NCBI GenBank assembly: GCA_905178155.1
Contig: CAJINV010000013.1
Location: 1,740,281-1,804,280 of the forward strand
From: Amoebophrya sp. A120
Lineage: Eukaryota; Protista; Dinoflagellata
DNA: 64,000 bases
Reading direction: 5' to 3'
Below the pieces are notes generated by a model that was not told the origin of the DNA, ran no database searches, and saw only the letters and a list, made by a program, of their open reading frames with translations. Below, piece by piece: positions 4,101 through 43,437 of this stretch. How positions within the stretch are numbered: the stretch's first letter is position 1; every line of letters starts with the position of its first letter. Position numbers and translations under genes: made by a program.

Positions 4101-4127
4101 TTGCTGGCTGGCAACCTAGCATCACAG

Positions 4128-4396
4128 ATAGAGAATCTCTATCCCAGATAGAGATTCTCTATCCCAGATGGAGAATCTCTATTTGGGATGGAGAATCTCT
4201 ATTTCGGCTTCGCCACTGGTGGAGGAGCTGCTGAAATATAGTAAAAAACATGTGGGAAAACAGTAAGAAACAGAAAAAGAAGAAAAAAGAAAGAAAAAGA
4301 AAGAAAGAAAAAGAAAAAAGTGATACTCTTTATCGAGAATTTCTATTTTCCTCGGAGAATCTCTATTTCAAATAGAGATTCTCTGAGATTTTCTAT
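4128..4396. repeat. Array of palindromic ATAGAGA(A/T)TCTCTAT motifs interrupted by an A/G-rich microsatellite
   Basis: Motifs at 20-bp spacing at 4131/4151/4171/4191, then at 4335/4355/4372/4385. Polypurine tract at ~4265-4320. Confidence 0.85.
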
Positions 4397-4644
4397 TTCG
4401 AGAGCCTCCATTATACATCTTCATGAGCTAGCAGTTTGTGCTTTCCAAATCCGGTACAGTACCCGCAGTTCCACCCAAGAGTACAACTAGAGGCTACCCT
4501 TTTTACTATTCGAACAACGTCCCACCTCCCATAAAAAATATCTCCCACAAGAATTCCTGCAAATCCCAATCGCTGTCCACCCGATTTACTTACTTACAAC
4601 TAGTCCAACTCCAGGGTACTATCAGTATTTTTCCGTACGTAAAA

Positions 4645-12041: not shown

Positions 12042-12904
12042 ATGGCGAACGTTTTTCCACCGGTTGTGTCATCAATGTTCGACCCCAACGCGGCCGCCCC
12101 TGCTGCCCAAGCGGTTGCAAATGTACCCCTACAGGAGCTGCCAACTACGACGAATGTCTACGGTACCGCGCTGCAGTATGTTCAAATGTTGGCAGAAAGC
12201 CCAGGCGCATGCTGCACTGCCGCAGCGGTGACGGTGGTGGTGGCGCAGGCACTGGTGAACTTGTGGATCTGGTCCGTATGGACGTGGAGGTACGTATGTA
12301 AGCGGAATGAAAAATTGTGCTTCTACATGTTGACAGATCTCGTATCATTTAGCAAATTCTGCATCTTCCCAAATTCTACTTTCCCACACGCTCTCTAAAG
12401 TACTTCTATGCTTCGTGTTTTAAATAATTTTTCAGGTTTGCCCAACCTACTTCCTTTCGCGGTGGCGCCGCGGATTCCCTGCTGAAAGAGTTCGAGACCT
12501 ACGGGTACGGGCCAGACATGATGAAGTTTGTCGGTTTCGTGAAACTCGGCGCCGCCACACTTTTACCCCTGGCGGTTATGGACCCGGGCTGCGATTATTT
12601 GCTGTTTCTCTCCTCCGGGGTGTTGCTCTTCCTCATGGTCGTCGCGATTGTCTCGCACTTCAAAGTAAACGACCCGATCAGCCGGAACTTTCCCGCCGGC
12701 TGCATGGCGGTGCTCTCCCTGTACGCACTCGTCATGGGGCTGGAAAAAGGAAGCTCCTACGAGGCGTTTTCCTTTTGGCGGGTGCTGGTGGGCATCGTGC
12801 TGCTCGCCGCCGACGGCTACATGTGGTATGACGCAAAGTACAAGTCCAAGGCGTACGCGACTGTCCCGGCGAGCGACAACGTCTTTTTCAAAATGGTGGA
12901 GTGA
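12042..12904 (+). CDS. DoxX-family membrane protein, paralog 1 (exons 12042-12289, 12436-12904)
   Basis: Spliced WTWR-FAQPTSFRGGAADSLLKEFETYGY...VGFVKL...LMVVAIVSHFKVNDP resembles bacterial DoxX-like proteins. GT-AG intron 12290-12435 is in frame. Confidence 0.8.
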
Positions 12905-22667: not shown

Positions 22668-23258
22668 ATGTTTGGTCTGGTCGCGCCCTTCGCGATTCTG
22701 CTTCAAGCTGCCACGACGCTGTGGATTTGGAGCGTGTGGACCTGGCGGTACGCGCTGAAGACCGCGTTCAAGCCGGCCGGGTGTTCCAACCGCGTAGCGG
22801 AGTTCAAGACCTACGGCTTCCCCTCCTGGATGCTCGGCGTGATCGGGTTCTTCGAGCTGTTCTTCGCGACGCTGCTGACGATTGGAATCATGCTCCCGAA
22901 GTGCATGTTTCTCGTCACGGGTTCCCTCGGGCTGATGATCCTGATGACCGGCGCGGTGGCGGCGCATGCGAAAGTGAGGGACCCCTTCGTGAAGTACTGC
23001 GCCGCGCTCGGGATCGGGATCGCGGCGGTCATCGTCTTTGCGTACAGCGTGGTCTATTTTCTGCGGTCCAGCACGAACGACTACGAGACGATAAACGATT
23101 TGATACCGAAAAGCTTCGACGATTTTTTCGTCTTGCTCGAGTCGGTGTTTCTCTACGGGACGTGCGCGCCGGACGGAACGGAACTAGGAGCGGGCGATTG
23201 CGTGTCCGAGATGTTTTCGAAACAAGGGCTGGAGAGTTTCAACGCGTTTCTACTACCG
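22668..23258 (+). CDS. DoxX-family membrane protein, paralog 2, exon 1
   Basis: Shares LWIWSVWTWR, EFxTYG, GF, LM--A---H-KV-DP with paralog 1. Homology breaks at CCG|GTGACA (phase-0 donor at 23259). Confidence 0.8.
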
Positions 23259-23430
23259 GTGACATGCCTGCTGCCGATATGGAGTGGGTTGCAGTAATCA
23301 TGGTTTTGAGTCAGAATCGGAACTTTACGATTTATTTTGTTAAGACTGCTTTTTGCATGCGAAGTGGATTCGACATGACGGTGAGGCACAAAATCTAGCT
23401 GTTTTTGCATGTTTTTTTCAAAAATCAGCT

Positions 23431-24530
23431 CTCGCAAATTTTCAAAAATCAAGGCTGTAGGTATTTTTTACTCAGCCGCCAGGGCCAGCAGCACGGCCGT
23501 GGGAAGGACAGGAAACGACCCATCAATTGTTGACTGCAGTTTGAACCCGCGGCGCAAAAGTTATTTTGTCCGATTTTCAGGGTGAGGCGGAGGTCTCGCC
23601 AATTTTGATTTTCGAAATTTCGCCAGAAATGATGTCCGGGTTTCGCGAAGTTTCTATCGCCGTGGGAGGGTATCATGCGTCCAACCGGCACAGGCGAGCA
23701 GCTCCGTCGGGAAAACGCAGCTTGCGCATCTTTTTGCCCGGAGTCGCATTCCTCAGGTCTCGCAAATTTTTCAAAAATACTGAAAAGATTGTTTTCCTCA
23801 CTGCGAAGCAAGGTCGTTGCGGCTGTCGGCAAAAGAGGCTGCTGATGCCTCGATGAACGGAAAATCGTGGTCGGGGCTCGTTTAGCTGTCTGGGGACAGA
23901 GGAAGGCGCTCGTTAATTTTTTTATTTTGAACCAAAAGGGATTTTTTTCACAGCGCAAATTGATGAGGCAGCTCCTTTCCAACCAGTCAACGCGGAAGCG
24001 GTTCTCAAGCTGTGTCAGACGTGCTACCGGGAAAGGCGAAGTCTCACAAATTTTTTCGAATCCACGCAAAGTTGTCGCAGGGGATGACGGATTCCGGCGT
24101 TAAGAAAGCAGCACACAGAAAAGCACGGGTGGCATACAGGCGAATCACCAACGCGAAATGGGCCTCAAGAAGTTTTTTTCCGTGTCTCAGCAGCCCACCA
24201 CGCTCGCAAATTTTTTCGCACAATGCAAAAAATGTTTCTATACTAAGCGGTCAAAAAGGGTAGCGGGCCGTAGTTCGGCTAGAAAACGTGTCCGCTGGAG
24301 TTGTATGCGAACTCGAGGAAGGGGGGGCTCGCAAATTTTCTAAAATTGATCTGAGACTATTTTTGTACTTGGCGATAAAGGTGTGATACTAGTTGTAGAT
24401 GGTCGACCCATCATCCATCACCACGCGTGGCGAGGGTGACGGCTCCACACGATCCGGTCTCGAACGCGACACGGCAGAAAAACTCGCTTTGCCGATTTGT
24501 CGCCCTGGGGCGACTCTCGCGAATTTTGTG
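23431..24530. repeat. Dispersed CTCGC(A/G)AATTTT motif at ~125-190-bp spacing
   Basis: Copies at ~23431, 23595, 23759, 23909, 24043, 24203, 24328, 24516 (some degenerate). Confidence 0.65.
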
Positions 24531-24545
24531 AAATATCGTTTTTAA

Positions 24546-24593
24546 GGGTATAGAAAATGCAATCCCAAGAACAAACTTAAAAATTTTACATGC
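24546..24593 (+). repeat. Left terminal inverted repeat
   Basis: GGGTATAGAAAATGCAATCCC-aagaacaaa-CTTAAAAATTTTACATGC, directly after TTAA. Confidence 0.82.
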
Positions 24594-26191
24594 TCTGCTC
24601 CGTGCGCGGAAAACAAAGCGAGCGCACGCTTTGCATTATGAAAAACGAAACTGCTAGGAATTTATAGATGGCAGCGACTATACAGAGGCGCAAAACGATT
24701 TCGGTTGGAGAAAGGTAGTAGTTTGCATTACAAAATACACTGATAAGCAATCACAAGATAGCTGCACCCAATGCATGAATAAGCAGCAGCTATACAGTTT
24801 CAACGAAAGCACTACAGGCGGCCGCACTTAAAATTTTCTACGACGTTGCAGTACGTGGGTACTGGTAGCGATTTGTGTAGCGCGGCAAGCTCGCAACTGA
24901 AGATCCAAGTAGAAGCGCACGAGAGCGCCGCTGTTCCGGGGATGCACAGGTCCTGAGAATGTTAGTTTTTTTCATTGAGACGCCAGAGATGAGAACTAAT
25001 GACGAAGCGAAGTGAGGTAGAGAGAGAGTAGCCGCGCGCGTCCTTTTTCAATTAAAAAAAACCTTTAGCAGATGTGTCGCCATGAGGGCGAGCCCGCTAT
25101 GGGCGGCGCTGGGGCGCCTTTTTGTGCTACTTTTGCCGAGCGGCGGGGGAAGGCGCGCGCTTTGATTCCATCCGGGAGAGAATGGAAAAAAAAGCCCCCG
25201 CCCGGGCGCCCCTGGGCTTTCGTTCAAGGGCGCCAATGGGCGAGGATCGCGGAAAAGCGAAGCAAAGCCTTCCGCAGCGCCTGCGGGAGGCAATCGCTTC
25301 CACTTCCGCGCGGGGAACGAAAAGGGGCGCGGCCTTGCTTCTGGTTTACCGGTATCGCGCCGGAGACCCCGGCACGGTCCTCGGCCGATTTGGCGCCGGT
25401 TCCCCCGTACTGGGGGCCGCCGCGAAAGTGGGCCCCCCCTTCTCTCTCCGCGCTATGCGCCAGCTCCGGCAATTGTAGCACGCACCAACTTCGGCCCCTT
25501 GGCCATGTATTTGGCCGCTGCGGCCTACTGCCAGAAATGGCGCAACGTTCGGGGCTTAAAGTCGCCCCGCAATTGGTACCCTTAGCGGCTTGGCCGCGCG
25601 GGCGCTTTATGGAAGATGGCCCGCAACCAGGTGGCGCCGCGTCTGCGGAAAGACGGCAGCCAGCCTGACACCTTGCCGACGTAATGTCGCCGTGCCCACG
25701 CGCGCTGTTTTGAATAAGTTGTGAATCACCGCGGCCCTCCAGAATGAAGGAGTTTATTTTTTTCCGATGATGTTCACGTGAAGAATTACACGAGATGACG
25801 TTGCAAACATTTTGTGGCGAGTTAATGTCTTTCAATATTACAATTTGAACCACACAGCGCGACCTACCAACTGCTTTCGTTCCACCACGCAGGCAGACCT
25901 TTGGTGCCCACAGCCTCGACACCCACCAGCAGCGGCTCAGCCCGTATTAGACCTGCGGCGCGGTTGAAGGGCCACCGGCATCGGTGCTTTTCATTTCCAT
26001 AGACTGTTGATTGATGTTGTTTGTGTGCAGAAGAAGTTCTATTTGTTTATGCTTGGAGTCGAGCAGATGTTTGTGCATTTTTGCACCAGCTATGCAGATG
26101 CGCCCGAGCTGTCTAGTGTGATGCGCGCAGCTTGGGAAACTTATTTCATGTAAAAAACACAACCTTAAACTACATCCCAGGTTCGTGCAGC

Positions 26192-26882
26192 ATGAATTTC
26201 ATGCCGTTGCTCATGGTCGAGGTCGAGCCGGACTACCGCCTTATTGATCGCCATGGCCGTGTGAGCAAGTACTTCTCCCTCACCGCCAGCTCCGTGCACT
26301 CAACGCGTCGTGTTTTTGTTGGAGTAACTCGGACGAGCGTCGTGTTTTTCTACAAGGCCAGGGATCCCACAGTGCAAGAGCTACGAAATAGAACTGCAAA
26401 AGCGGCTGCTTTGAATACAGTGATGATTTGCATTACAGATTATATGTGCCTTGCATGCCAAAAAGAAAGCGAACATGTACTGGCTGCATAATGTTGGCAT
26501 TCAAATCAAAAAGCTTTTGCAGTTTTATTTTGCATACCCGGACGAGGTCGCGATGATGCCAGGACGACGATCGCCACTGTTCGATGCCGCCAAGAACATG
26601 CCTTTGCCGCGTTTTGGATTAAGTAGTTTTATTAGTTTACATTGGAAGCGATACGCAAGTGCTCTGCTGCGAGAACGTCTGTGCATTTCAATTCCACGAT
26701 CAGTGTACTATCGTGGTGTGACTGAGAAAGCATATGACGAATGGCATGCAGACCGTATAGAAAGTCGCCAAGCATGGCTACGCGCTTGGTTCTGCCGACC
26801 CAGACCCATTTTTGTAAAGGAATTATACAGCTGCGTGGATCGAAGCAAGAGTAGCAGCAGTGTGGTAGAAGAAGTGGACTAA
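26192..26882 (+). CDS. Cargo gene A, hypothetical (exons ~26181-26419, 26523-26882; 5' exons possible)
   Basis: ORFs 26132 and 26451 join via phase-0 GT-AG intron 26420-26522. No recognisable domain. Confidence 0.55.
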
Positions 26883-27674
26883 TAAACAACGCAGATGTAC
26901 TATTGTGCGTTACCGTGATTCAATTGGCCCGTGTTATACAGAACTGCAGCTCTGCGGCGAGGAGCATTCTTTGCGTCGGTTGATGCTACATGTACCGTGT
27001 TCAAGTTTGCACAGCTGCTCTGTCTATTCGATAATCAAACGAAAATCTTCTGCGCCAAAACCACAACAAAAGCGTTCCTATGTCGAGGCTGTGATCAAAA
27101 AAAATTTCTAGAGTTGTGATTTGTGGGTTGTGTGAACGAGTTGTAGAACCAACAAAATGCATCAGAGTTGTGAATTATTTTTTTGCGCATTGCCGGATAC
27201 GTTGTGAAGCATAGATTTATTGTGGAAAAAAAGCCTGTCTCACGTGTGCGTGTGAAGTCTGTGTTTTTTGATGAGCTGAAAGCAAGAAGTGTGGGCGTGT
27301 GTGAAGAGTCTGTTGTTTTGTTTTGATATTGGAATCAACTTGAAATACCTATGCAGCGCTCTTGTTTTTGAAATGTATTTGTGCTTCTTGATATTGTCTT
27401 CATAAGAATTACTGCTAGCATTGCACCTGTGCGCTCTTTGATCCCCATAATTCCAACTAATTCCCACAATTGAAAAACTGCCCTTCCAATCACGCTGCTT
27501 TCCCAAATTCATGCTCTTTGGCAAATTGCATTACAAATTTTGACTTTTTTCGCATTGCGTCATCTTTTCGCATTGCGCGTTCGTCTTCTTTTCCAAAGCA
27601 AGCCCGTAGCTGAGAGATTGACGAATAATTGCGAATTTTACCTGAGGCGAAGGCAAATCAAACATCTTTTAAAG

Positions 27675-30380
27675 ATGGCAGATAATAACGCAGGAGGTGG
27701 AGGAGGACCTGGTGGTGCTGGCCAAGAGCAACAGGCGGTTGCTCGCGGCAACTTGCTCGAACTGACAAACGTCAGAAAGCGATCTGGCGGAGTAGCATCG
27801 ACTTTGCTTAATGCAGTGACCGGTCAGGTCAGTCGGTCCTGGACCCAGTTGAGTTTAGTGATGCTACTCAAAATGCTGCAGGTGGCGCTACAAGATTCCA
27901 TTGAAGTGCTAATTTTGTTTTTTTGTTATTGTTTTGTGATGATTTGATGCGTGGCATGTGGTTGTTGTTGATGCAAAATAAACTATTCAATAAATTCATC
28001 ACTACAGCTGGGAGAACTGCAGCTGGTCTGCACGTCCTGCGCCAGAATGTTATTAGCAATTCTGGTGATCACAAGAACGCCCAGTCCGCCACAGCTTGGG
28101 ACCTTCCCGCGTTCCGGGCGTAACCTGTTACTTACGAAATACAAAAACCGCGCGAATTTGGCATGCATGTGGTGCATTATTGTGTCATGCAAAGATTTGC
28201 ACTCGCCTTCATCCACAGGCATTTACACCGGCGCTTGAGAATTTCGTAAGTTTTTAGTTTCATACCAGTACTGCTCCACGCCGCCACTGCCCGGATGACG
28301 TGCAGCTACCGCCAGAGTTGGCAGGACGTACTATTTTTTTTTTAATGTTGGCGCTTTGATGAAATCATGATGCTTTTCTTCATGCAGGATTTGCAAACTA
28401 AATTATACTACTACAACATTGCCAGGCTTGCCACATTTTGGATGGCTTGCAAAACGCCAGCGAGCGCCGGATCCTGGAAACTTGGTTTCGGATGCTGCAC
28501 CACTTTCACAGTCCGGATTTGGACGACGACATGGTCAACGGCCTGTGGCAGGAAGTATGAAAATGACAGATATAGCAAAGCAGCTACTGTTGCATGTAAA
28601 AATTACAAAGCAGTTTTGTATTTGCAAGGAGTGCACGTTTGTAGTATGGCTGCATAAATTTTGTGCTTTGTTATATTTTCAGTTGCATACGTGTACATCG
28701 CTCAGTGGCAGCCCAGCATGGTCGGCCTCGGCGAGTTCACGTTGAATTCACCCGAGCGTGCCCGTCCGCAACGGCAGCTGTTCGCCCCGGTCTTGATGGA
28801 CGCTCCCCGTGTCGCCCCGGAGCAAAACCCGGCTGCTGACGGAGGTAATCCCCCTGCTGCGCCCGCAGCTCCTGCTGTTGAAGCTGCCGCTCCGGCTCCG
28901 GCCGCGGACGAGGGCGTTGAGATGCCCGACGCCAATCCGGTTCCGCCGAAAGCTCCGGCTCCGGTCGTGCCCAACACGCCCGTCGCGGTGAAAGCTCCGG
29001 TTCCGAAGGCCAACCCCGCGCCGAAGGCCAAACCCGCGGCACCCGCGGCTGCTGCGGCTGCGCCGGAGGCCCCGACCACGACCGGTATGATTTTTTTTTG
29101 TTTCAATGAAGTCATGATTCAAAATTGCATGTTTTCATGAAAATATTTTACATGCAAATCATCTACTCCGCAGGTAATGACATGAGCGGCATGTTGGCGA
29201 TGCTCCAGCAGATGATGAGCACGGCGATGCAGTCCATGATGGCCGACTTGAAGGCCGAAGTGAAAGAGACTGTGATGACCGAGATGGCCGTGGCGAACTC
29301 GTTGAGCGACGCCGTCCCCGAGGAACAGCTTGAACAACCCCCGATCATCATCAGTGCTGCCGGTGTCCAGGACGGCGGTGTCTCCAACACCGCGAGTGCG
29401 AACTTGCAGACCCCGATCTCCCAGTCCGGCTTGCCGGTGCGGCAGTTGTTTCTGTCGGGAGAATCTGTCGGTCCGAAGGCTCCCCCCAGTGGGAAGGCTG
29501 GTATAACATCGTTTGTCATGGAGATAGAACTTGTGACGAGGCGGCATGAGTTTTGCAATGCTATATTTGTCCACTTTCTTTACAACAGCTGCGAAGCAGG
29601 GTGCAGTGACCTCGTCTGTCAACCCCGCTGCTGCCGATGCGAAGCCGAAAGCCGTGAAGAAGACGCTGCTACCGCCGGGTAAGATGTTTTTTGTTTTCAA
29701 ATATGAGCGTGTGCATGATGTGGCATTTTCTAAATAATTTTACTTCATAACTAATAACAGAATCTTCTCCGGTTCCGAAGGCTGTTCCGAAGGCTGCGCC
29801 GTTGTCCTCTGGTTTCAAAAAGAAGGAGTTACCCAAGACGACCCGCATGTCCAATCAGTCCGTGACCCCCGCGATCGCGCAGCCCGCCCCTGCGGCGGAA
29901 GCTCCGGCTGCTGCTTCGACCACCGCGGCGTCCTCGGGTGTGAATGTGACCATCGGCGCTGCTGCTGTGAACACGCCCGTGGTGTCCTCGACCGTGAGCG
30001 TGACCGTGCCGGACACCGAGGTCGTCGACCCCGCTGCCAAGCGTCGTCGTCTCTCGAGTACTACTGCGTCTGAAGCGAACTCTGTTATTCCGCCCGCCTA
30101 TGATCCGAACCTGACCTACAGCGCGAACCTGGGCCGTGGTGTGCCGATGGACGTTTTGATGAGCCAGTCCATGTTGAACCAGCAGGAGGAGATGCGTACC
30201 GCGATGCACTGTGATCAGCCCGAAGTTGAGATTCCGGAAGACGAAATCGCGGACTGGATCAACCCGCAGCCTGTCATGATCACTGGTGATAACGGCACCC
30301 AGATCCCGTTTGTCGACCCCACGCCGGATTCGGACGGCGATGTCGTTGATGAAGAAGATGATCTGTTGAAGGAGGATTAA
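27675..30380 (+). CDS. Cargo gene B, multi-exon Pro/Ala-rich protein with NLS-like motif and acidic tail
   Basis: Start MADNNAGGGGG. GC-rich exons (28683-29084, 29174-29500, ~29590-29678, ~29761-30380 plus small 5' exons) separated by AT-rich GT-AG introns. PAAKRRRLS motif; DEEDDLLKED terminus. Confidence 0.7.
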
Positions 30381-31164
30381 AGTGATTCTGAATCATCGGT
30401 GTAGAAAAACAGAGACTTTTCGCTACGGCAGATGTTAAATGAATTGAAGTTAGAGCTCCTTGCTAAGTTTATTGTTTAAAAGTGAGTCGAGTTCATCTTC
30501 ACCTTCTTGATGCATGTCTTGTAAAATTTTTTGTTTTCCAGCAGCAAGCGCATTTCAGTGTCAGTGTTTATAAAAATTTATGAATTTTATTTTCCATTTT
30601 ATCGGGCGGATAAGCTGGTGGAAAAGTTTTTACACAGTTTTTTTGGGAATAGGGTTCCCCATAGTGTCACAGTTCCTACGCCGCGTCATGTGCGGTAGAC
30701 TTATTTTCGGTTTACAACTACTGATGCCGTAGTATGTCATGTTTCTTGTCCCGAAAGCGATTGACTTTTCATCAATGCAATGTACGCGAAATAGCGACGT
30801 GAAAAAGCAACTGTACCTGTTACCGCGAACGAGCCTGCTGCTTGAGTGGGACCATATCAATGTTTTTTTGGGAAAAATCAAAAATGAATAGGAATACTCA
30901 GCACGGCAATGCGCAGCTTCTTTCTCATGTCAATATGATTTGTGTACGTCGAGTTTTGTGGTCGTGCGATGGTTGATGAGGCAAAAGCGCAAGGATGAAT
31001 GACGCCACGTTGCTGATGATGAAGATAAAACTACTTTGCGAAGTTTTGGTGTGAGAGAGTGACGCTGGTATGTGTCAGTCACAATGCGAATGCGTGTCAC
31101 AAGTTTGTCGGCTGTGATAATTAGAAAACAATGAGAGATAGATAAAAAGCACGCAAGTGTAAAG

Positions 31165-31761
31165 ATGCAAAGAAGAGCTGCGTTCGCGGGCACTTCGCCC
31201 GTGGACCTGGATTTGGAAGCGACGGATATCACCGATATTCCGCTCATCGCAGTAAACGAGCTTCTTCTCGGTTTACCTCTTGAAGTGTTCGTCAAAACCG
31301 TCCGCCAGTTGCAGCAAACCACCCGAAAGGACTACGCAAAAGACCCGCAGAAAGGACATCTTCAGCCGAGTAATCTTCGCAACAAGACCCTCAGCTTGAT
31401 GATGCAAGCTTTCCAAGACGAGACTGCGAATCTCGTGCTGCAGCGGCAGGGACAGTCGAAAGAAGCGGAGAAACAACCATGGGTGTACGCCATGCCGGGA
31501 GAAACCGGTCCCGACTTGGTATCGGTTGACGGGTTTTTGGCTTTGGCCAACATGCGATGCAACAAATACTACAAGGAGGCGTTGTCTTCGCGGAAAAAAC
31601 GACCACTGGAGCATAGTAGTGAGCACTTCGCGAAAATTTTTGCAGAAGCCCTGTTGCGACCGCTGGAAGCGTGTGGGAAGGAGTCCGTGATTTTTGACGA
31701 CGTGAAGCTAGGACACGAGGTCGAAGCATCCGCCTTCCAGTGTTTCTGTATGAACTGCTGA
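31165..31761 (+). CDS. Cargo gene C, hypothetical 198-aa protein
   Basis: Single ATG-initiated ORF with coding-like composition, SRKKRP basic motif and CFCMNC end. Confidence 0.65.
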   Translation: MQRRAAFAGTSPVDLDLEATDITDIPLIAVNELLLGLPLEVFVKTVRQLQQTTRKDYAKDPQKGHLQPSNLRNKTLSLMMQAFQDETANLVLQRQGQSKEAEKQPWVYAMPGETGPDLVSVDGFLALANMRCNKYYKEALSSRKKRPLEHSSEHFAKIFAEALLRPLEACGKESVIFDDVKLGHEVEASAFQCFCMNC

Positions 31762-33032
31762 TGCGTCGCGCTCCTCTATCACGCACAGAAGCGCTTGTAT
31801 TGTACTAAACTACATATTTTTGTGATAGTTGTGTGATAGCGGAGCGTGACGCATTTGAGTTGCATACTGGACGGCTCTGGTTGGATCACTTTCACGGGGA
31901 ATGCTTGTATACTTATTTTTTTATAGTTGTATTCCAACTTCAGTTGAATTATTTTGGGAACAATATGTTTCGTGCACTTGTGAGCATTTCATGAGAATAG
32001 AATTTGTGGCTTGTTCAAATTGAGAAGGGATTTTACAAGCGCTCGCTTTTGCACGGCGACCGAGACCATATAGGGCAGTCTAAGAAATTTAAAGCTCGCG
32101 AAAATGCATCACTTTCTGCATAAAACACGCAAAGCAGAAATGTTGCGCTCCGGCAAAACAAAAAGCGCGCTACCTGGAAGCTAGCAAAGCTTCCAGAAGC
32201 GCGAGGGACGAATTTCTGCCAATGCTTACCCAAGACATGCGGCTGCTTTTCATGTTGCGCGCATTTTAGGAAATGACGTGCCGACATTGGCGTACTCAGT
32301 GCGCGCGCGCGTGTGCGCGGGCGCTTGCACATCGCCAGTCGCAAGCACAAAAACAAGCGCAATTTCAAGCATCAAAAAAAGCGCAAAAACTTGCGCAATT
32401 TTGAGCATATTTTCGCGCGCTTTTTCGCGCGCAAAAAAAAGCACGCGAACCGAGGCCATGCCATGCAGTCTAAGAAATTTTCAGGTAGTGCAAAATGCAT
32501 GGCTTTTTGCTGCGCAAAACAGAGCATAAAAGCGAGCACTTTTCACAGCGCAAAAAAAAGCGTCCACAAATAGAGCTCCCAAACTCCTAAAACTCTACTT
32601 GAGGGCGCTCTTGCAGTAGGGCATCTTGTGCATTTTCGCGTGCTTTAACGCGCGCTGCAACTTGATGCAGCGCAAAAAATTGCACATCATCACGTTGCAG
32701 CATGTGAAAAAGCATAAAAAATAGCGAAAAAAAGTAGCAGCTCCACGCCTGCGCGCGGATAGCGTGTCTTTGGCATGCAGCTGTTGTTTTTCAATGGTTT
32801 CGCGGCTGGAGATGGAAATCAAGCATTTGTTTGTGTCCAGGTTATTTCATTTTCCGCAACAAATGTGTTTGTGGGCTGTCGCCAGAGCCGAGCGTGCAAA
32901 TGTCGCAGCCACAAGCCGTGACATTTGTCTCTGGGCCTGATGGTCTGGAGAAATAGCAGTAATTCTATGTTTTCGCTTGTTCTGACACAACCATGCTGAA
33001 GCGTCAGCTTTAAATTCGTATTAAAATCTCAG

Positions 33033-33959
33033 ATACTCCGGCGCGGAGCATCTCAGTCGTGGACCTTCTGACATGGTTTTTGCAATTCGGATCATCGAAG
33101 GTACTACTTCTGGCTGTGATGCAACAAAAAGCACGCTTTTTTGCATGACAAATTATGACGCTTTTCTTCAGTCCGATCATCGTACCATGACGCGTTCGAA
33201 GCTAATGCAAAAACTATATTTCCCAGGGGTTGGACCACATGGCAGATTTTTTCAACGCGGCGTACGCGGAAATTTTGGAAACCTGGCCAAAGGATCAAGC
33301 TGCGAGCTTGGGTATACTTCTTGAGCTTGGTTTGGTTGCATTTATGAAAAACATGCATTGTGATTTGTCATGCATGCTTTATAATTTTTCGAAACAAATC
33401 AGGTTGCCAGTTGGTCGACAAGACGCCGGCGATCGTCACGATTGGAGAGCCCGGTCGACACAACAAGCCGTTCGATCAACTAATCCACTGGTGTGCGGCT
33501 CCCTACAATCCAAAACTCAAACCGAACCTCGAACAATCGCGGATCATCCTGGTTTGGGGATACCTGTGCTGGTTAATGGAGGTGGTGAAGGTGAGCCAGA
33601 TGATGTGGAGCAGGTATGGAAAGCCGATTGGAGTCGCATTGGACGGTGTGCGACTCGGCGGTCGCGAATTTGTCCAGACGAGAATCAGAGGTCCGTGGTT
33701 AGACGAAGTCGACGAATTCTTCACCCTCAACCTCTTCGTCGTCGCGATGCCGGAAGCTAGCTTTGCAGAAATCAAGAAATTTTTGAAGCGATTGGACCAG
33801 GCGGATTACTCCTTCTCGTACCAGGAAAAGAAATATTCTTGCTGGATGTCGGCGCTGTTGCAAATCCTGGCAGCGCTTTGCGGTTGGGGTCGAATAGTTG
33901 GGGCCGGCGCGATGGATGATCATTTTGCTTCCTTTTTCTCTCGGATTTCTCCAACCTAA
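33033..33959 (+). CDS. Cargo gene D, divergent macrodomain-like protein (exons 33033-33100, 33227-33311, 33403-33959; first exon upstream)
   Basis: Phase-compatible GT-AG introns. VVDLLTWFLQFGSSKGLD, AIVT, LIHWCAAPY, L-WGY--WL and IGVALDGVRLGG follow macrodomain motif order (IVNAAN..GGGVD, AVIT, VIHTVGP, L--AY--SL, SIAFPAISTG). Confidence 0.5.
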
Positions 33960-35641
33960 GAAATTTTTTTAGCCACCACGCACCGAGGCCGGGCCCACCG
34001 AGCAGAATTGTCCAGGGTCTCGCCTGTGCGGCCCCAAAAAGAAGCGGCGTCGCACATGTTGGGCCGCTTGCGGTTGCGCCGGTGCTCTTGGGGGCCCGGC
34101 CGCCGCGCTGGGTTGTGGCATTGCGGGGGCCCTTGCGGAGGGGCAGTGGGGTGTTGGCGCGGTCGGTCCAGGCCGCGCAGGCGCCCACCTGGCGCGGGGG
34201 CCTGGCGCAAACTGGCCAGCCGAGGCCGGGAGCCGAAATGAAGCAGGAGGAAAGGGGGGCGCGGGTCCTTGCATGGGCCACACTGGGGAGGGGAGAGGTC
34301 GCGGCCAAGCTTGGTAGAGCGCGTGAAGCGCGGGCGTCCGTCCCATGCCAGGCAAGGAGCACCGAAGCTGGGAGGAGACACAGAGCACAGGATCCATGCT
34401 CGGCCGGGGGCCTGCGGCCCGCAACCAGCGGGGCGCCCCCGCGAAGGCAGGGATCGGCGCGGCGCCTTCGCCATGTCCCGGGCGGGCTCATTTCGCGTCC
34501 AATATCCCCGGTCCCCTTTCTGAATCCCGGCGCCCCAGTTTTCGCCGTCCTTCCGAAGAAGGGTCGCGCGAAAACTTATGATCATCATTTTCTTCAGATT
34601 TTCTCATTATTTTCTCACCATTTTCTCATCATTTTGTCCAGCCGACAAAATGATGAGGTCGCTATAACCGTGGTCGTTAGCTCGTGGAACGGACAAAATA
34701 ATGGGTGTGTGTTTGAGAAAATAACTAGAAAATCTGAAGAAAATAATTTGTAAGATTTTTCATAATTTTCTCCTGTTCTTTCCGAGGTCCCGGACAAGAA
34801 GTTCCGGGCGCCGGGAGAAAATCTGGAGAAAATTGTGACAAAATGATCGCCCAGAAAACGGCCCCCGCCGAATCGCCCCGCGCGGGTGTTTTGGTTGGGG
34901 CACACAAGGGGCCCGGCGCACCGGCGCCATCCCGAGCGCCTTCCCTGCTTCGCGTCTGGGCTAGCTGGCTCTTCTGCCGGCGTGGCACTTCTACGGCCAA
35001 ATAGCCTGCGTTCTTCGGTCGGCCCCACTTAAATTGAGAGGCAACCGCTAACAAAGAAACAACCAGGGGCCAAAATACACACGCACCGAGCGCCCGCGGG
35101 CCTCCGTTTGGGTGGCCCCGCCCCCTCCCCAGTCTCCCGGCCTCTTTTGCCTGCGCAACCCCAGCCCCCCGGTGCGTCCGGCTTGGCGACCGGCCGTCTG
35201 CCTACGGCGCATCACGGCCCAACCCGCGGCGGCTTTATGTTTTAGAGATCAGGCCGGTGTGGCGACATGATCCCGGCAGGAGTTGGCGCGGCCCGCTGTT
35301 TTTGCCGGGCCGAATTTCCGTGCGAAGGCTTGGGGCCGCGCCTTCATCTAGCGGGCGCCGGGCGCTCTCGGGGTCCCGGGGTGGAAAAGTTTTTTTTTCA
35401 AAGAAAAACCGAAGAAATCCGGCAGCAATCTGGGTTGCGTCATTCATCAAACCACGCCGGCCCCAAGAATAGGAGTTGACCAACCCTGCTGCTTCGCCAT
35501 GGATAAATGCAGCGGAAACAGTTACCCGGCTTGGAGAAGTGAACGGGGAGATGTATGAAACAAATTACTCACGTTCTGCCCACGTGCATATTTAGCATAT
35601 TGCAAGCGGTTGTTTTTTGATGCGGATGCGCTACAGACTAG

Positions 35642-38546
35642 AACGGAGTAATTTTTTTCGCTGGATATTCTCCGTCGATCTGCATCTATGATGTTCCCCA
35701 TGATGAAAACAGACAGTCGGCGAAGGTGGCGGACAAAATGTTACCAGTCAAATTAAAACGATTGTACCGATTGCGGTCCACTTCTAGCGGCATGCACAGC
35801 GTGAAATTTTCCGATTTTTTTGGGGCAGTGGTGGAAAAGTGCGATAGCGATGACATAATCCGTCTTGTGGGGGAATTTCGCGAAGATTTAGAAGCCGAGC
35901 TGAACACATCCGACGACGCGGATGATTTTCCGCAAAAAGTGAAAGAGCGGTGCAAGCAGATCCGTAGCGAGCTGGGGAATTTCGCCGCGAAGGAGCGGTT
36001 CTGCCAGCAAGATTATACTTGCTATTTCGCAAAACGGGGGTGGACGACGTTGCGGTTCGCTTTTCGTGCTTTCTTGTACATCGAGAATCCGCGGCGATCC
36101 AGCTTGGAAAACGAAATTTTCGTGTCCGCGCCAAAAGACGGTCGACCGGCGCTGATATTGTGGAAGGACTTGAGTCTTGACCTGACGCTGGCGAAGGCGA
36201 TGGGTGATAATCTTCCTTTCAAGGCCAAACGACAGCCGGCGGATGAGAAAGAAGAAAGTACTTTTTGCGTATTTGTTTACAATGTGCATGACAAATTACA
36301 TCTACGTACAAATCAGATGCATTATCGCGCTCACAATGTGCATGACAAACAGATATTACGCATTACAAACAGGTGTTTTGAAAGACGAGGACCCGGGTTC
36401 TTCTTCTGACGATGACGACGAGAACCGGCACGATAAAGCATTGCTGAAATCGGAAAACAAGAAAGCAAAAAAGACGTGGGATTTTGCGAAAGATACCGTT
36501 GAGGTGGCCGACATGGTCGAGACAGATGAAAACTGGGCCCTTGCGGACTGGGTGAAAGAATTGGACGAAAAGAAGCGAAAACGCAAACAGGACGAGTTGA
36601 AGAACTTGATGGAGGAGCAGCTTATCCAGCTTGGACCCGCAGACAACCCAAACGCCATCATCTCAATCCACACGACCCTAGCAGATGAGTCAATCCGCAT
36701 GAGCGCCCTCATCGTGGAACTGGCGAAGCGGAGCAGTTTGTTCTACCACGGTGCGACGATCGCAATCGGGTGGGTCAACTTGAACGCCCACGGTGCGTTC
36801 TACTCCCAATCGCCATCGATGTTGGCGGATACTGCAGCCTGGTTCAGTGCTTTTCTTGAGGTGGATTTGCAGCGCTCTCTCCGTCTCAACGACGAGGAAC
36901 AATTCGGGGACATCTTCGGAGCCACTTTCTACTGGGTATTTTTTGTTTGCGGTTCTGCATGACCAAAAGGATAGTTTTTTGCATTCCAAAAATATATCCG
37001 CGTGCTGCTGCCTTCCAAAACTTTTATTTTTTTGCTCGTGCACAAAAGATTAAACGGCGCTTGCAAATTAAACTTGTTTGCATGTTTGAGTTGCAGCTTT
37101 TTCATATACCAAAATAATCAGGTCATGCGGAAGGCGATCAAAACGCAACAGTTGCGTTTATCGCAAGAAAAACGGATGCTGATGTACGGCCAGAAACCGG
37201 GGCTCAGCCTCTCGCTTGGCGATTTTCTTACCCTGCCGGAAGGTTTGCAAGGATGGAAAAGCTCGGTGGCCGAGTTGCTCCGAGACCGCCAGTTCTACTT
37301 GAAAACCGAAAACAAGTCCTTCGTTCCGTTTCTGACCGACACCCCGTGCAAATTTCTGCGTCCCGCGGACAAGAAAGCACACTGCAATGAGTTCACTTCA
37401 CCGCACAAAATTCCCTGCTACACGCATTTCCGGGAGAGGACCGTACTGGACAGCTACGAGTTCGAGTCGCAGTTGCTGGCCAAAATTCTGGAGGTGAAAT
37501 CGTTGAAGAAGAACCCGATCGCGTCGAAGTTGATCAACTGCCTCGGAAAGCAGGAAAACAGCTTTTTGATCCGGACCTGGATGAAGATCTACGAAACGAA
37601 GGGTGAACAGGACGCGCAGAACTTCCTGGAGCTTTTTCCCCCGGCATTAATTCCGAGCACGCGCGACATTGAGGCCTACGGGGGAATATTGTCCAAAACA
37701 AGCCGCAAGAACAACAACGCGGGGATTATGCAAAAGGTATAGACTATTTTGCTGCGATGGCTGTAAAGTTTCTACTTCGTATGCTTGCATCCGACTTTCA
37801 AAATAGCAGTGCTGCATAACAAGTTTCAAACATTACAGACATCGCAGTGGGCCCTGCAGGAAGCAGCAATTTCGACTTGGGTGCCGCCGTTTCGCGCATA
37901 CGATGCGCAGTCGGATTTGCTTACACGGAAAGGCTGCATGGACTCCAACAGCGTCCTGGACGGACGGCAGCTGCTGGAAAATGAGAACGACATCGACTAC
38001 GACGCGGTTTTGGATATGTGTTTTCCGGACGGCGGAAGGTTTGAAGATATGGCTACGCTGAGAGCGCCAAGCGACATCATGCGGACTTTGAACCGTTTGA
38101 AAATTGGGGAAAAAACGTGGAACAACGACCCGAAACCGGAAATCCAGAAGCAATTGAAGCTGACTACGAATTACCCGAAACTAGAAGACGTGATGAGTGA
38201 ACTGAAACAATTTATGAACCTCGACCACGCGAAGCACGGTTTAACACCAGAAGAAATCCAGGAATTTTTGAAGTGGAAAACCAGCACGCCGTCGCTGCAC
38301 GAAAGGCGGATTGCCGAAGCAGTGATCGATGAAAATCACACAGACATAATGCAAGGCACCCCCGGGTTCCAGGAATCTTGTAAGCGGGGCCGGTTGCAAT
38401 GCTTGCACTTGTTTTTCGTGTTGCGCCAGTACACCGAGATGAAGAAGCCCCTGATCATCGAGGTGCACCTCTACGGAAAGCGTTCGCGGATCATGCAGGT
38501 TCTAGCCGTGAGTCTCAAGCTGCAGGTGGTGATCGGGATTGTTTGA
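35642..38546 (+). CDS. Cargo gene E, large multi-exon hypothetical protein (~830 aa)
   Basis: ORFs 35726, 36204, 37002 and 37785 join via phase-compatible GT-AG introns 36258-36372, 36936-37121 and 37737-37838. Possible 5' exon near 35499 and 3' exon at ~38800-38937. Confidence 0.72.
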
Positions 38547-39742
38547 GGCCGGCGGATCTGATGAGGAGAATCGTCCGGATTTCCTCGGGATTTCTTAAGA
38601 TTCCCGAAAAATTTTCAAGCTTGGGCACTCCTTGGGCCCTTTTAGGCTGTCCGATTTTGACGCGTCAGGCCTTTGGGGGCGGATTTGGGTCCTTTTGGTA
38701 GTCGTCCGGCCATTTTAGGCCGTTGGTGGGTGTTTGGGGTCCTTTTGGGCTGTCGCTGGGGGCTGTTTCTATTGCGAAACTGTTACGAAACTGTTAGACC
38801 GCGCAGGACTGTTGCCCAAGGGCAAGAAGAAGAGCGACAAGCTGCAGCCACAGGCCCCACTGGGCGACACGCTTTTCGAGGAGCCCGCAGCGGCGGCCGC
38901 CGCAAATGTAGCGCAGGTGGCTGCTGCTGCTGCGTGAGGACGTACCTGAAGACGGCGCTGAAGATGTGGCCTCGCTTTTCGCTTTTGCGTTTAGAACGGA
39001 AAAAAAAAAGACCTTCCGTCTTGGTCGCGGGATATCTTTTGGATAGCTTTTGTCTGGTCCTGAGATTTCCCAGGATTTCTCCTGGGATTTCTTAGGATTT
39101 CTCAGGATTTCTCTTAGGATTTCAATTACTAAGTGGCGGAAGCTCTCCGCCAGATATCTTTTTTTTGTGCGATGGTGGCTACTCCGGAGCACTCAAGGAG
39201 AGACGCCCGGGAGGTCAGAAGTGGCGCCATTTTGACTTGTCAAAAGTGATGCCTTTTGCTTCACGGAATGCATCCGAGTGATGGGATTTTGCATTTTAGT
39301 GATGGGATAGGATTTGCGTTTTTGCATTTTGGTGATGAGATAGGGTCTGCATTTGAGTACTTTTTGCATTATTTAAAGTGGCGGAGTGTGATGGACCGAA
39401 TTTGCATGATCACGCGCGAGAAAGTGCGACGCCTCTCGGGGAGATTGTTTTTTGCGTTTTGAATTTGCACGCGGGCACCCCTTGCGGTGTTGGAGCGGTT
39501 CTGATATCGTAAAACGCGCGCGCAATCACGAAAATTGTGGCGACGCATCTAGCTAGCTAGCCGTCGCCATGTCATTTTATCGGTTCGGCATATGTGTTGA
39601 TCGGGGGCGGTGCGGCGTGATTTGTTTTGTTACTTGAGAGAAAATTGGAACTCGGAAAATTGAAAGAAATCTCAAGAAATCCGGGACGCGGGGGCCATCA
39701 GAGCCCGCCCGTCTCAAGATTGTGTTGAATGAAGACAAAGCA

Positions 39743-42381
39743 ATGCTTTACGAGAAGGACTTGCTCAGCAAGGGGGAAAAATTCAATGCTGGCGAGGACA
39801 TGGTAGGAGATGAGCCCGCAACCGGTCTCCAGCCCTCTCACCACCACCAGTTCGAGCGGTCCTGTCGCGTTATCAGTGGCGAGGGCGTCGGAAAGTGGCG
39901 AAGTGCTTTACTCTACCAAGTGCACAAGTTTTATTTTTCTTTGCTAACAAGAACGACATTTGTGAATTTGTAATGCGAAGTTGTTATGCATCATGGCGTA
40001 TTTTTCCTATTTCAAATAGCGGCGAGGTTTTCTAATTTTCTAATGCAGCTGGCACATGTTTGTTTTCTATTTATCAGCGCTGTACCTGTTCCCAATATTT
40101 TCACAACAAAAAATCACCAGACTTCTCTCGTGCGTTTAAATCGACCTACGACGGCGATGTCGCGGAGCGGTTCAGGGACTGGAATCAGGCGCGTCACAGT
40201 GTGGAGCTGTGCTATCCCAGGAGCCACCACTGCTACACCATTCCGTTTCCGACAAATTTGAACCACCGGTGCTCGCGGTTGAAGGCGTTATTCATTACAT
40301 CTTCCAGGATCGACATGCTCACCAACAAGTACATCCAGGAGCTGCGAATTATCCGCGACGCCAGGTACAAAGTTTTCAACAGACAGCGGGTGCGGATCAG
40401 TTTCTTCTTTGACGCAGAACAATTCCGACCACTCGAAGCGGCAATACAGGCAGGATTTGGCATCATTTCGAACCCCACCGGAGCCAACAGCAACAAATTA
40501 GCCGATCTGAAGTCGACCTGTGAGTACCTTTTGATGGACGAAGCGAAGCGATTTTTCAACTTCAATCCCGACATGGACGGGAAGCAGTGCTTTGAACCCT
40601 GGGAATTTTGGCGGCTTTTGGACTACAGCAGTTGCGTCGAGCGCGACCAGCTCCTGCAGGATGTGCTCGAAGAGCGCGCCCGACCCTTCCGCACGGAAGT
40701 GGATCCGCAGCAAGACGTCGACCCGAGCCTCCAGGCGGAGAATGAAAAGGACCAGAGTCAACCCCTTGACGACTACCGTGTTGATGTGAAATTTCGGCAC
40801 ATGATCCGCAAGCCAGCCACAGCGTCCGACTCGGAGAAGAAGAGGCTGCTCGAAGGGATTTTTTTTGATGCCCCGGAAGGCATCACCGAGCAGCAAATTC
40901 AAAACCAACAGCAACCGATTTACGCCGTGGACTACCACAAAGACAAATCGCGAAAGCCGGAGAAAAACTGGGGGCCGGACCAGCTGCTGGTGTTCTTCCG
41001 CAGGGCGCTAAAAGATATCGATCAAGTGGAACACATCCGGGACATCTTCTTTTGCTTGTGCTACGGAGAATACGAAGGAGAGAGGATTCTGACAAAACAG
41101 GGAGTTTTCAAAAACGACGTGCATAAAGCGGGCCCAGTTAGCACTATGGCGCTGTCGTGCAAAATGTTTGCGAAAAAGGTGTGCGACCTGATGGGAATAG
41201 CAAACAAGCAGTCCGTTTCTCGCGATGTTCAGCATCACGCGCAGCTAAAGATCGAACAGGAAATTTTGAAAAAGGCAAAGGAACCGCTGCAACCGGAACC
41301 CGCTGCCGATCCGGATGAGATGCAGGTCAACGCAAAAAAGATTCTCGAGGCATCTATCGGACTATTTGGGGTGGCGGGGAAATCAGTAGTTGCCGATCTG
41401 GTATTGCTATAGTTTTTCTGTATTACAGCTTGTCACCTATGCGTCGTTTTCTTTTTGTGCTGTGCAAATGAGTGTTTGGAATATTGGAGCATGACAAATT
41501 CTAAACTACACTATGAAGGTTGACACCACCGCGCAGCCCGTGCCACCGGTCGCGGAAGCCGAAGGTCCAAACTACGGAGTGTAAATCTGGCCACGGGTTG
41601 AACTTGTCTTGCTTTGTATTATTTGTGATGCTGAAAAAGATAACTTTGTAATGCAAAAAGTACACTCTTCAACATTTTCAAAAACAACCCGTGGCTGCTG
41701 TTTAGCATGGATACGACGGACACTATTAAAAAGGAACCGAAGTCGGTGGGACGTGAAAAATATGAGGAGCAGCTGAAACAACTACGACTCAAGTACGCGT
41801 CGGGGAAATTCAAAGCGCAGGTCGACCACAGCAGCGAGATTTTTCATAAGGAGTTGGATCTAGTGAAGCTCCACCAAAAATACAAGGACGCCGAATACTC
41901 GGGGGTTTGCGACGGCTGCGGGGAGGAGATTTTGGTGTACAAAAAAACCTTTCTTTCCGGCGGTGGCCCGTGCCTCTCCTTCAAAGAAGCCCACAAAAAC
42001 AACTGGCGGGCCGTGCAGTTGGGACCACAGTCTCACCGTATTAAGCCCGGATTTGACGAAAAACCGATGTGCTACTGTGGCTTTTGGAGATTTGGGCACA
42101 TTTACGAAGGGGAGTCGATGACCTGTGTGGAAATCTCCGACGACCAATTGTTCAACTGCGCGACTTTAACGGCCAAAGCGCGGCGCCGCGAAGACGTGAA
42201 TTCCAAGTGTAATTGTGATGGTGATTTGAAGGTTGTTGAGAAAGACCTACCGAGGTTGCAGCAGAAGTTTACGTACACGAAAGTAAAAAAAGACGACTGG
42301 CAACTAGCTGAAGATGACAGCACTTTCTTTGATGCTCCCCTGCCCTCGACCAAGGAACTGGACAAAAATGTTTTCAAGTAG
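39743..42381 (+). CDS. Cargo gene F, ~745-aa hypothetical protein with Cys-rich C-terminus (exons 39743-39919, 40078-41400, 41519-41580, 41706-42381)
   Basis: All three GT-AG introns are phase-compatible. C-terminal CDGC...CYC...H...CNC suggests zinc binding. Confidence 0.75.
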
Positions 42382-43099
42382 AGCACGACTGTAGTAAGTA
42401 TAAAAAGTGTAGCTGATCATACAACTTTTGATAGTTTTCATTGTGGTAAAACCCCTCGCATAGAGGCCGCGTTTGTATCTTCGTTTTTCACTATAAATGT
42501 TTTCTTCTCGTCGCTTTGACTTCTACCACCATCGGGGATTTCTGGTTGCGAGTCCTTCTCTATTTGTTTCAAGGAGCAAATCAATAAGTGCAGCACCAGA
42601 TCAGTAGCAAAAAGCGTAAAAAGTACAATGTAAAAACTCACCAACGTAGCCGGGTTCAAAAATATAAATGCCTCCGATTGAGACAGGTCCTGCATCAGTA
42701 GCATGGCCAAAAGAGCATCACCCGCGCGCTACAATTTTCAGGGTCTATTGCGGCAGAAGTGTCTGGATCTTTAGCTGGTTCAAATTTCAAAGCAGCGACG
42801 CAATTACAAAAAAGGTCTTCGATTTCTAATATATAGTGTAGGGGGGCGCATCCTACTAAAAAGACACGCTTAAGTATGTGCGCGTATGGCGTATTGGTTC
42901 TGTAAACGATCAAAGAAAAAAGATCAACGATCTAATTCACGTGAAAAAACAAACCGATAATATCAGTGTGGATCTACATCGAACGTTCCACAATGCGACT
43001 AAAAACCACAAACGCGCTGCGATCTGATTTCAATAAAATAAAATCGGTTATCGTGGTGCTGATTCGGTTTTTCGTCGTGACGGTGCAGCAAAATTTCGC

Positions 43100-43147
43100 G
43101 CATATGAAATTTTTAAGATTGAGAAAGGAATTGCATTTTTTATACCT
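43100..43147 (-). repeat. Right terminal inverted repeat
   Basis: Reverse complement reads AGGTATAAAAAATGCAATTCC-tttctcaat-CTTAAAAATTTCATATGC; TTAA follows at 43148-43151. Confidence 0.82.
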
Positions 43148-43230
43148 TTAACGTTTTAAGGAGAAACTTACTTCGTATCTGATTTGGCTCAGAATCAATC
43201 TCGTTTGAAAGAAATTCATACTCGTCGCAG

Positions 43231-43437
43231 CCGGGGAGGATTTGCTTCACTTTGCTGATCCTGATAATATCGGGCGTAATGCTGACCAAATCTTACAAGG
43301 CTGGGGTGTACCGAAGAAAGTTGAGTCAAACGGGAATTTTCGACGCGAACGTGATGCTGCTAGACAAGAAACGGGACGGTGCGGAAACGGCAAGTAGCTC
43401 GGACGAGGAGGAGGTAAAGGTGAAGGTAAAAAAATAG
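43231..43437 (+). CDS. DoxX-family paralog 2, terminal exon
   Basis: After the CGCAG acceptor: PGRICFTLLILIISGVMLTKSYKAGVY...EEEVKVKVKK*, similar to the last TM helix and YK--Y tail of paralog 1. Confidence 0.7.
   Translation, partial: PGRICFTLLILIISGVMLTKSYKAGVYRRKLSQTGIFDANVMLLDKKRDGAETASSSDEEEVKVKVKK

Follow-up and report, generated by a model that had tools for sequence, protein, structure and literature searches.

A very long predicted DDE transposase in an 18.6-kb inverted-repeat element of Amoebophrya sp. A120

The described DNA transposons closest to the element reported here are those of the hAT, Kolobok and Dada groups. The hAT target-site duplication is usually 8 bp, with 5, 6 and 7 bp in hAT5, hAT6 and hAT7, and hAT5 and hAT6 are animal lineages (PMC12730594). 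Kolobok elements have a TTAA duplication and RR...YY ends, and their lineages, except Kolobok1, have a zinc finger between DxxH and the catalytic Glu (PMC9587614). Dada elements, with members in Perkinsus, have an intron-containing transposase of 1,402 amino acids (aa) with DxxH and a C-terminal zinc finger, and make a 6-7-bp duplication (PMC3706591). The introners of Amoebophrya are short and noncoding; they lie inside genes and have inverted repeats together with short direct repeats (PMC7789003, PMC12130899). Here we describe an element in a 64-kb stretch of DNA (the window, on whose + strand all coordinates are counted) from Amoebophrya sp. A120, a marine parasite. The element is very probably a multi-copy inverted-repeat DNA transposon with its own predicted 1,976-aa DDE (Asp-Asp-Glu) transposase, likely hAT-related and likely moving by cut-and-paste, with a 5-bp target duplication of variable sequence. 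Its ends are the following, with the evidence in parentheses.

24542..24593, + strand: left terminal inverted repeat (TIR), 52 bp, starts TTAAGG (inverted-repeat comparison, depth, contig breakpoints)
43100..43151, - strand: right TIR, 52 bp, reads TTAAAG from the end (inverted-repeat comparison, contig breakpoints)
24537..24541, no strand: putative left target-site duplication CGTTT, 5 bp (sequence)
43152..43156, no strand: putative right target-site duplication CGTTT (sequence)

A first-pass annotation of this DNA, made from the sequence alone, had described two-part TIRs bordered by TTAA, and a recount reproduces it exactly. Compared without TTAA, the arms are identical at 18/21 positions, at 3/9 in a spacer and then at 16/18, and the distance between the TTAA at 24542-24545 and that at 43148-43151 is 18,602 bp. 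With TTAA included, 41 of 52 positions match (79% alike). The binomial probability of the 52-bp pair is ~2e-12 per pair, which comes to ~0.004 when every pair of positions in the window is counted, and the pair ranks among the longest inverted repeats of the 64 kb.

Important is the sequence found outside of TTAA. The first-pass annotation took TTAA as the target duplication and read a Kolobok signature from it. However CGTTT lies directly outside TTAA on both sides, where it is the sole direct repeat among the lengths of 2-10 tested (chance ~0.0015). For other copies, number and flanks were derived solely from contig breakpoints in public sequencing runs, of which two, both DNA and from a single sample, contain the whole stretch. 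The two left flanks of other copies finish in AGGGT and GCAGG, and their right flanks, a two-contig consensus with an agreement of 0.6, start ACAGG. ACAGG is the column-wise tie of AGGGT and GCAGG under alphabetical printing of ties (chance ~0.0017), an assumption that the A-rich, T-poor consensus fits. This convention for reading flanks holds for a nested element, N1 (see below), of which another copy shows TTGTAC on both sides.

The CGTTT repeat and the 5-mers that appear to match at two other copies together argue that TTAA belongs to the termini and that the Kolobok signature is absent. TTAA is most likely the tip of the 52-bp inverted repeat and not a target duplication, and the element most likely measures 18,610 bp, with a duplication of 5 bp that varies in sequence. 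A TTAA-specific 4-bp duplication of the Kolobok kind is, as judged from these sequences, very probably lacking. The revised boundary gives TT...AA termini, and RR...YY holds only if TTAA is counted as the duplication. An empty site should read ...ATATCGTTTTAAGG..., with a single CGTTT and without the TTAA of the element, and not ...ATATCGTTTTTAACGTTTTAAGG...; an empty allele reading ...CGTTTTTAACGTTTTAAGG... is incompatible with the interpretation preferred here. A 22-nt end motif had no match in viral contigs. Its two exact matches in metagenome contigs, L001:10001-10022 and L002:6756-6777, were set aside as chance hits in AT-rich DNA with no other likeness.

The left end (24542-24617, 76 nt) is present at twice the interior depth and is identical in two copies with different flanks, two contigs diverging at 24541/24542 into foreign left flanks. 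At 80% likeness three variant right ends are found, and two contigs diverge at 43151 into foreign flanks. All six ends observed, three left and three right, stop at TTAA. In addition, five joints at a single-copy depth of 20.9, most simply one contig, match the element in collinear order: near 28312, and at 30228-30254, 35990-36060, 37922-37999, 38116-38138 and 40834. These matches appear to mark a diverged sister in which gene B and the transposase gene follow each other in the same order; gene B, to which two short matches (side 27 nt) belong (near 28312 and at 30228-30254), is probably shared with the sister. Further copies of the element and a diverged sister occur in the same sample, and the earlier claim of a giant inverted-repeat transposon is borne out, the element being multi-copy as well.

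About six genes had been annotated within the element, four of which (C, D, E and F) fuse into one gene with 13 exons.

31165..42381, + strand: predicted DDE transposase gene, 13 exons, 1,976 aa, equal to genes C, D, E and F (splice signals, relatives)
31165-31747, 33033-33100, 33227-33311, 33403-33897, + strand: transposase exons 1-4 (model)
35473-35552, 35642-36257, 36373-36935, 37122-37736, 37839-38542, + strand: transposase exons 5-9 (model)
39724-39902, 40121-41325, 41519-41580, 41706-42381, + strand: transposase exons 10-13 (model)

The 1,976-aa model is free of stops and uses ten GT-AG introns together with excision of two nested elements, each with one duplication. In a collection of 1.84 billion proteins, exon 37839-38540 matched 12. 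Two of these, P0006 and P0010, are repeat proteins and were dropped; of the ten true relatives, Amoebophrya AT5.2 contributes six and A25 two, and the remaining two are unnamed fragments. The eight long relatives have 1,059-1,990 aa and are 20-37% identical. The model of exons 2-13 aligns with 8/8 of them (E 4e-68 to 8e-45), collinearly and across both nested joints, and a profile of the N-terminal region of four relatives has a single match among 1,479 open reading frames (ORFs), the ORF 31135-31758 of gene C (E 6.7e-7). C to F therefore make up a single gene, which occupies 11.2 of the 18.6 kb. The acceptor at 35642 is possibly ~30 nt off, in view of a 10-residue insertion in the alignment. 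Shifted cuts are a weak control for the nested joints, as 96/169 and 55/169 likewise stay open; because of this the joints are placed by their duplications and by alignment with relatives, and not by frame alone.

The first-pass annotation had recognised no transposase and had offered a highly diverged one as an option. The former holds for Pfam, PHROGs and NCBIfam, whereas the relatives, their invariant catalytic residues and an RNase H-like predicted model speak for the latter. The residues are as follows.

33642..33644, + strand: predicted first catalytic Asp, D326 (invariant in 7/7 covering relatives)
35502..35504, + strand: predicted second catalytic Asp, D421 (invariant in 7/7 covering relatives)
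35690..35701, + strand: DxxH signature, D454/H457 (invariant in 7/7 covering relatives)
37671..37673, + strand: predicted catalytic Glu, E1014 (invariant in 8/8 long relatives)
41706..42381, + strand: Cys/His cluster in the last transposase exon, predicted zinc-binding (pattern of the relatives)

The second Asp and the Glu are 593 residues apart here, and 456-626 in the seven relatives that cover both. The Glu lies in the motif R-D-I-E-x-x-G-G, and most relatives have the Cys/His pattern CxxC...H...CxCG(F/W/Y)W...C...CxC. The predicted model of the relative P0008 displays RNase H topology, with three strands, helices, a strand bearing the second Asp and a DxxH strand, and with the first Asp on strand 1 of the core. 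In a Foldseek search of this model against PDB the top 5 matches are all Hermes (E 0.017-0.037). VIA-align of P0008 residues 85-888 with Hermes gives Z 8.7 and a root-mean-square deviation (rmsd) of 5.7 over 326 aligned residues, and a wide search gives Z 8.1, rmsd 8.8 and 253 aligned. The language-model neighbours that have a Pfam family are DUF659 and ZBED/FAM200 RNase-like clusters (0.79-0.82), which we take to be hAT-derived. The predicted transposase, as modelled, has D, D and E on an RNase H fold, with the Glu placed at low confidence. Traits of the C/DxxH clade are also present, namely TIRs with a target-site duplication, several copies, and DxxH after the second Asp. Motif, fold and element anatomy agree, though every line is middling.

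For the C-terminal half (P0002 model, with a predicted local distance difference test score, pLDDT, of 59) no clear fold match was found (best Foldseek E 0.85, Z 5.2), and this null does not demonstrate a new fold. A library of viral structures gave nothing at E up to 0.001. PHROGs and PDB sequence searches gave no meaningful family either. In word-index protein searches exon 37122-37736 matched nothing among longer proteins, and the family profile found P0008 alone, the method being too weak for this family. Exon 40036-41409 had no usable match in the language-model atlas. Pattern scans with four relatives confirmed 0/272 metagenome, 0/67 prokaryote-genome and 0/14 viral contig candidates, and one transposase exon had zero matches in viral contigs. 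Exon 37122-37736 seemed to contain a MULE-like TD...CxxH motif, which was rejected because the relatives do not keep it. The literature searched holds no description of the family, with Repbase, Roy et al. 2023 and subscription journals outside that search.

Several points weigh against the transposon interpretation. No sequence-level match to a transposase was found with Pfam, NCBIfam or PDB profile searches of the relatives and the window ORFs. The fold is that of the relative P0008 (mean pLDDT 52, 10 sequences) and not of the window protein, and its Glu segment has a pLDDT <50. No Foldseek E reaches 0.001, retroviral integrase cores tie with Hermes in the wide search (Z 8.0, rmsd 2.7, 81 aligned), and models without a clear match typically score Z 7-8. 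Atlas scores below 0.9 are leads only. The exons were modelled from splice signals and relatives rather than from transcripts. The matches to the sister element are short (23-78 nt) and at 80% likeness, a range prone to chance joints, and at the other copies the duplications are read from an unpaired consensus of two contigs under the assumed tie rule. Finally, a search for an empty site, proposed in the first-pass annotation, saw no empty allele in the two DNA runs of one sample.

If the element is a transposon of the kind proposed, its transposase would bind the two-part 52-bp ends, perhaps through the C-terminal zinc-binding domain. The D-D-E triad of the RNase H fold would cut, and the ends would be joined to the target at a 5-bp stagger in a Hermes-like manner; Hermes itself joins ends at an 8-bp stagger. 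The stretch of ~590 residues that separates the second Asp from the Glu would form an enlarged helical insertion domain. The two nested elements would have inserted later into the transposase gene.

33898..35466, no strand: nested inverted-repeat element N1, 1,569 bp, ends TTGGGGCCGGCG, 6-bp duplication GAATAG (sequence)
38543..39717, no strand: nested inverted-repeat element N2, 1,175 bp, ends TTGAG, 6-bp duplication GATTGT (sequence)

N1 and N2 are two of the regions described earlier as GC-rich structured spacers, and both interrupt coding sequence; the block at 25050-25700 remains as a GC-rich region. N1 sits between the codons of the first and the second catalytic Asp. It is found at ~2x depth with 3-4 differences in 696 nt, and since a near-identical second copy exists (the one flanked by TTGTAC), N1 arrived recently. 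N2 is at single-copy depth, and its excision with one duplication restores the reading frame. Left unspliced, N1 leads to a stop at 33957 and N2 to a stop at 38544. Both are introner-like in having an inverted repeat and a direct repeat inside coding sequence, and N1 is also repeated in the genome. The window copy would make enzyme only if N1 and N2 are spliced as introners, and would otherwise depend on sister copies. Among the contigs listed no RNA contig crosses the joints 33897/35473 or 38542/39724, and those of runs X3 and X4 (RNA by guess) overlap transposase exons by at most ~20 nt, which is not evidence of silence. Three raw RNA runs that bear the same species label gave 0 matching reads, which says nothing on expression.

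A published supplement (PMC12130899, drawn on in part) has an A120 introner family, fam135, with four copies of ~1,180 bp and a 16-bp inverted repeat. It carries matches to hAT5/hAT6 terminus motifs, with coordinates reaching ~18.8 kb; fam103 is of similar size. The likeness of N2 (1,175 bp) to fam135 is in size only, and is a lead.

In comparison with hAT, the likeness lies in a predicted RNase H core that appears to be interrupted by a large insertion of helices, a C/DxxH motif following the second Asp, a predicted Glu on a late helix, short TIRs, a duplication of variable sequence, and Hermes as the best structural match. The 5-bp duplication is not the usual hAT 8 bp but is inside the range given in PMC12730594. 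The differences are in size and layout. The protein has ~2,000 aa as against 674 aa in hATx-6 (PMC8721813), with ~590 residues separating the second Asp from the Glu and ~960 residues past the Glu without a fold match. There are also a C-terminal zinc cluster, TTAA termini and two extra genes, in 15.9 kb without the nested elements. No Pfam match to the hAT BED finger or dimerisation domain was found in the ten relatives or the window ORFs, and divergence could hide the latter. Like Dada the element has a long, intron-rich transposase gene, DxxH and a C-terminal zinc cluster; in contrast, Dada (PMC3706591) targets small-RNA genes, its second Asp and Glu are 176 residues apart, and it has a CCCC finger at the N-terminus; no such trait is found here. 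No conserved Cys is seen in the N-terminal alignment. The element lies in an intron of a DoxX-like gene and not in a small-RNA gene, no Rfam or tRNA scan of the flanks having been made. A piggyBac assignment was rejected: piggyBac elements have a DDD triad and a TTAA duplication, as against a Glu in third place, a DxxH signature and a 5-bp duplication here.

A Kolobok-type element, having a TTAA duplication, RR...YY ends and a very diverged Kolobok transposase, would account for the six of six ends that stop at TTAA and for the GG and CT read inside it, but is improbable. DxxH is common to Kolobok, and accessory genes and TTAA at the boundary are further likenesses (PMC9587614). However this explanation leaves the two coincidences of ~0.0015 and ~0.0017 unexplained; here TTAA is apparently in the element, the duplication is 5 bp and variable, and the third motif and its spacing are of another kind. 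Kolobok cores (8/20 places in Data S5, PMC9587614) differ from the protein here in being compact and in having a Cys/His finger and a third motif of the N-E-S-x-N/H type. Fold and feature neighbours point to hAT. We know of no Kolobok structure for comparison. In the alignment of relatives no Cys is invariant within the stretch from the second Asp to the Glu, which does not exclude Kolobok1, and Pfam searches of window ORFs and relatives gave no match to KolX, RecQ, DnaQ, lambda-exonuclease or the His-Me finger.

It is less probable still that the protein family descends from a domesticated transposase that serves the host, with the inverted repeats as relics. The relatives are indeed very long and share only 20-37% identity, A25 and AT5.2 have them annotated as genes, and the TIR arms are only 79% alike. 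But two copies with differing flanks have identical left ends over 76 nt, the duplication is perfect, the element is nested in the intron of another gene, and the six diverged paralogues in AT5.2 keep the triad where covered. Least probable is the non-autonomous Pack-type or virus-like cargo element proposed earlier, which would be moved in trans with unrelated orphan genes: genes A and B do lack relatives in the libraries tried, and the transposase of the window copy, with its two interruptions, may be dead, but the fused gene largely refutes it, one gene with invariant DDE/DxxH residues taking up 11.2 of the 18.6 kb, with no PHROGs or viral-contig match and no viral fold at E up to 0.001.

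The multi-copy DNA transposon with its own transposase, preferred here, can also be set beside other giant transposons. Polintons, Teratorn and the 16-20-kb EnSpm of Chondrus likewise have 16-19 kb and several genes (in the part of PMC6431247 used here). In contrast, no polymerase, capsid or viral gene was found in the element, and its size is mostly that of one huge intron-rich transposase gene and nested insertions. Its predicted giant DDE transposase is of a kind not annotated before, and possibly of a new lineage.

The element is enclosed by an intron of a host gene.

22668..23276, + strand: host DoxX-like gene, exon 1 (Pfam DoxX_2, E 1e-10)
43225..43437, + strand: host DoxX-like gene, exon 2 (contig joint, orthologues, protein P0013)
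23277..43224, + strand: non-canonical host intron, 19,948 nt, enclosing the whole element (contig joint)

Exons 1 and 2 joined translate, without a single difference, to the protein P0013 of Amoebophrya sp. A120, and DoxX-like orthologues are ungapped across the exon joint (LLPSQ). In runs X3 and X4 contigs leave the window at 23276 and resume with the letters of 43225 onward. One RNA-type run also contains 42907-43070 with zero differences. The cells of that run probably carry the element and splice the 19,948-nt non-canonical intron, and it should be noted that contigs cannot show which allele was transcribed. After subtraction of the element and one duplication the intron measures 1,333 nt. 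The copy would have entered a pre-existing non-canonical intron, with splicing of the host gene persisting. An element of 18.6 kb is apparently tolerated within a spliced non-canonical intron, which would be because the landing site is an intron.

The outer parts of the host intron (23277-24536 and 43157-43224) have TAT...ATA tips and a weak gapped inverted match. No exact direct repeat was found in it, and no inverted repeat with a duplication beyond these tips; it may be an old introner. The + strand ORF 12428-12904 resembles, by eye, a paralogue of the DoxX-like gene.

The element holds about three genes, and about two unexplained ones remain from the six orphan genes annotated earlier.

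25858..26882, + strand: putative gene A, spliced, model uncertain (ORFs 26117-26491 and 26427-26882; limits by eye)
27675..30380, + strand: putative gene B, multi-exon, Ala/Pro-rich second half (ORFs)
25050..25700, no strand: GC-rich block, 64%, single-copy depth (composition)

Gene A has no Pfam, PHROG or PDB match and no relative was found; gene B has no family match above cut-off in Pfam or PHROGs. Both are probably accessory genes of the element family and not captured host cargo, a view for which the matches to the sister element are weak evidence in the case of B, with none for A. In the 25050-25700 block no convincing inverted repeat with a duplication and no ends were found. The 1,285-nt first transposase intron contains a 70-nt direct repeat, 74% alike (32051-32119 and 32441-32510). 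Related sequence is found on other contigs, and the repeat may be another nested element.

Elsewhere in the window, 46600-64000 on the + strand encodes a very long protein with 12-residue repeats in threes (36- and 108-nt period) and at least one GT-AG intron; its first ORF has no Pfam match above cut-off. The array at 1700-4400 is GC-rich, has hairpins and consists of short repeats, both palindromic and tandem; it is probably another repeat element. Two inverted-repeat elements with TAT ends, 10935-11186 and 15964-16100, have perfect 5-bp repeats, GAAAA and AGTCC. They fit the A120 introner end (TAT, seven bases, AAA), and their duplication has the length of that of the giant element.

The ends of the element also bear on the introners of these strains. 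The ends of A25 introners start with TTA and two purines, and the main A120 class starts TAT (PMC7789003). In that paper (Farhat et al. 2021) two putative transposases are given for A25 and none for A120, and a general transposase-driven spread of the Amoebophrya introners, which number thousands, was thereby ruled out. All 22 (of 118) Amoebophrya introner rows in PMC12130899, as far as drawn on, are without a superfamily. Both ends of the element read TTA-purine-purine (0.0016 per position), matching the published A25 consensus (PMC7789003), and A25 encodes two relatives of the transposase. N1 and N2 start with TT and three purines. Against a link, the duplications made by N1 and N2 measure 6 bp instead of 5 bp, neither element has a longer stretch in common with the giant ends, the main A120 class has TAT, and AT5 has six relatives yet 99.98% canonical introns (PMC11453091). 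The element family is put forward tentatively as a candidate introner transposase. It is conceivable, though we hold it for somewhat doubtful, that the element is the first autonomous member of an undescribed DDE lineage of superfamily level, with a transposase of ~2,000 aa and so far from Amoebophrya only, whose paralogues spread the TTA-purine-purine introners of A25 and the TTG-ended nested elements.

The anatomy known for DDE transposases is stretched by this family, with an insertion of ~590 residues and a C-terminal extension of ~960 residues without a fold match. If the link to introners is true, splicing of nested introners from the transposase message would tie expression of the enzyme to non-canonical splicing. 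Because the family is too diverged for domain libraries, is present in three strains and has A25-like ends, it removes the argument from a missing transposase, as made in the part of PMC7789003 used here, and names a candidate.

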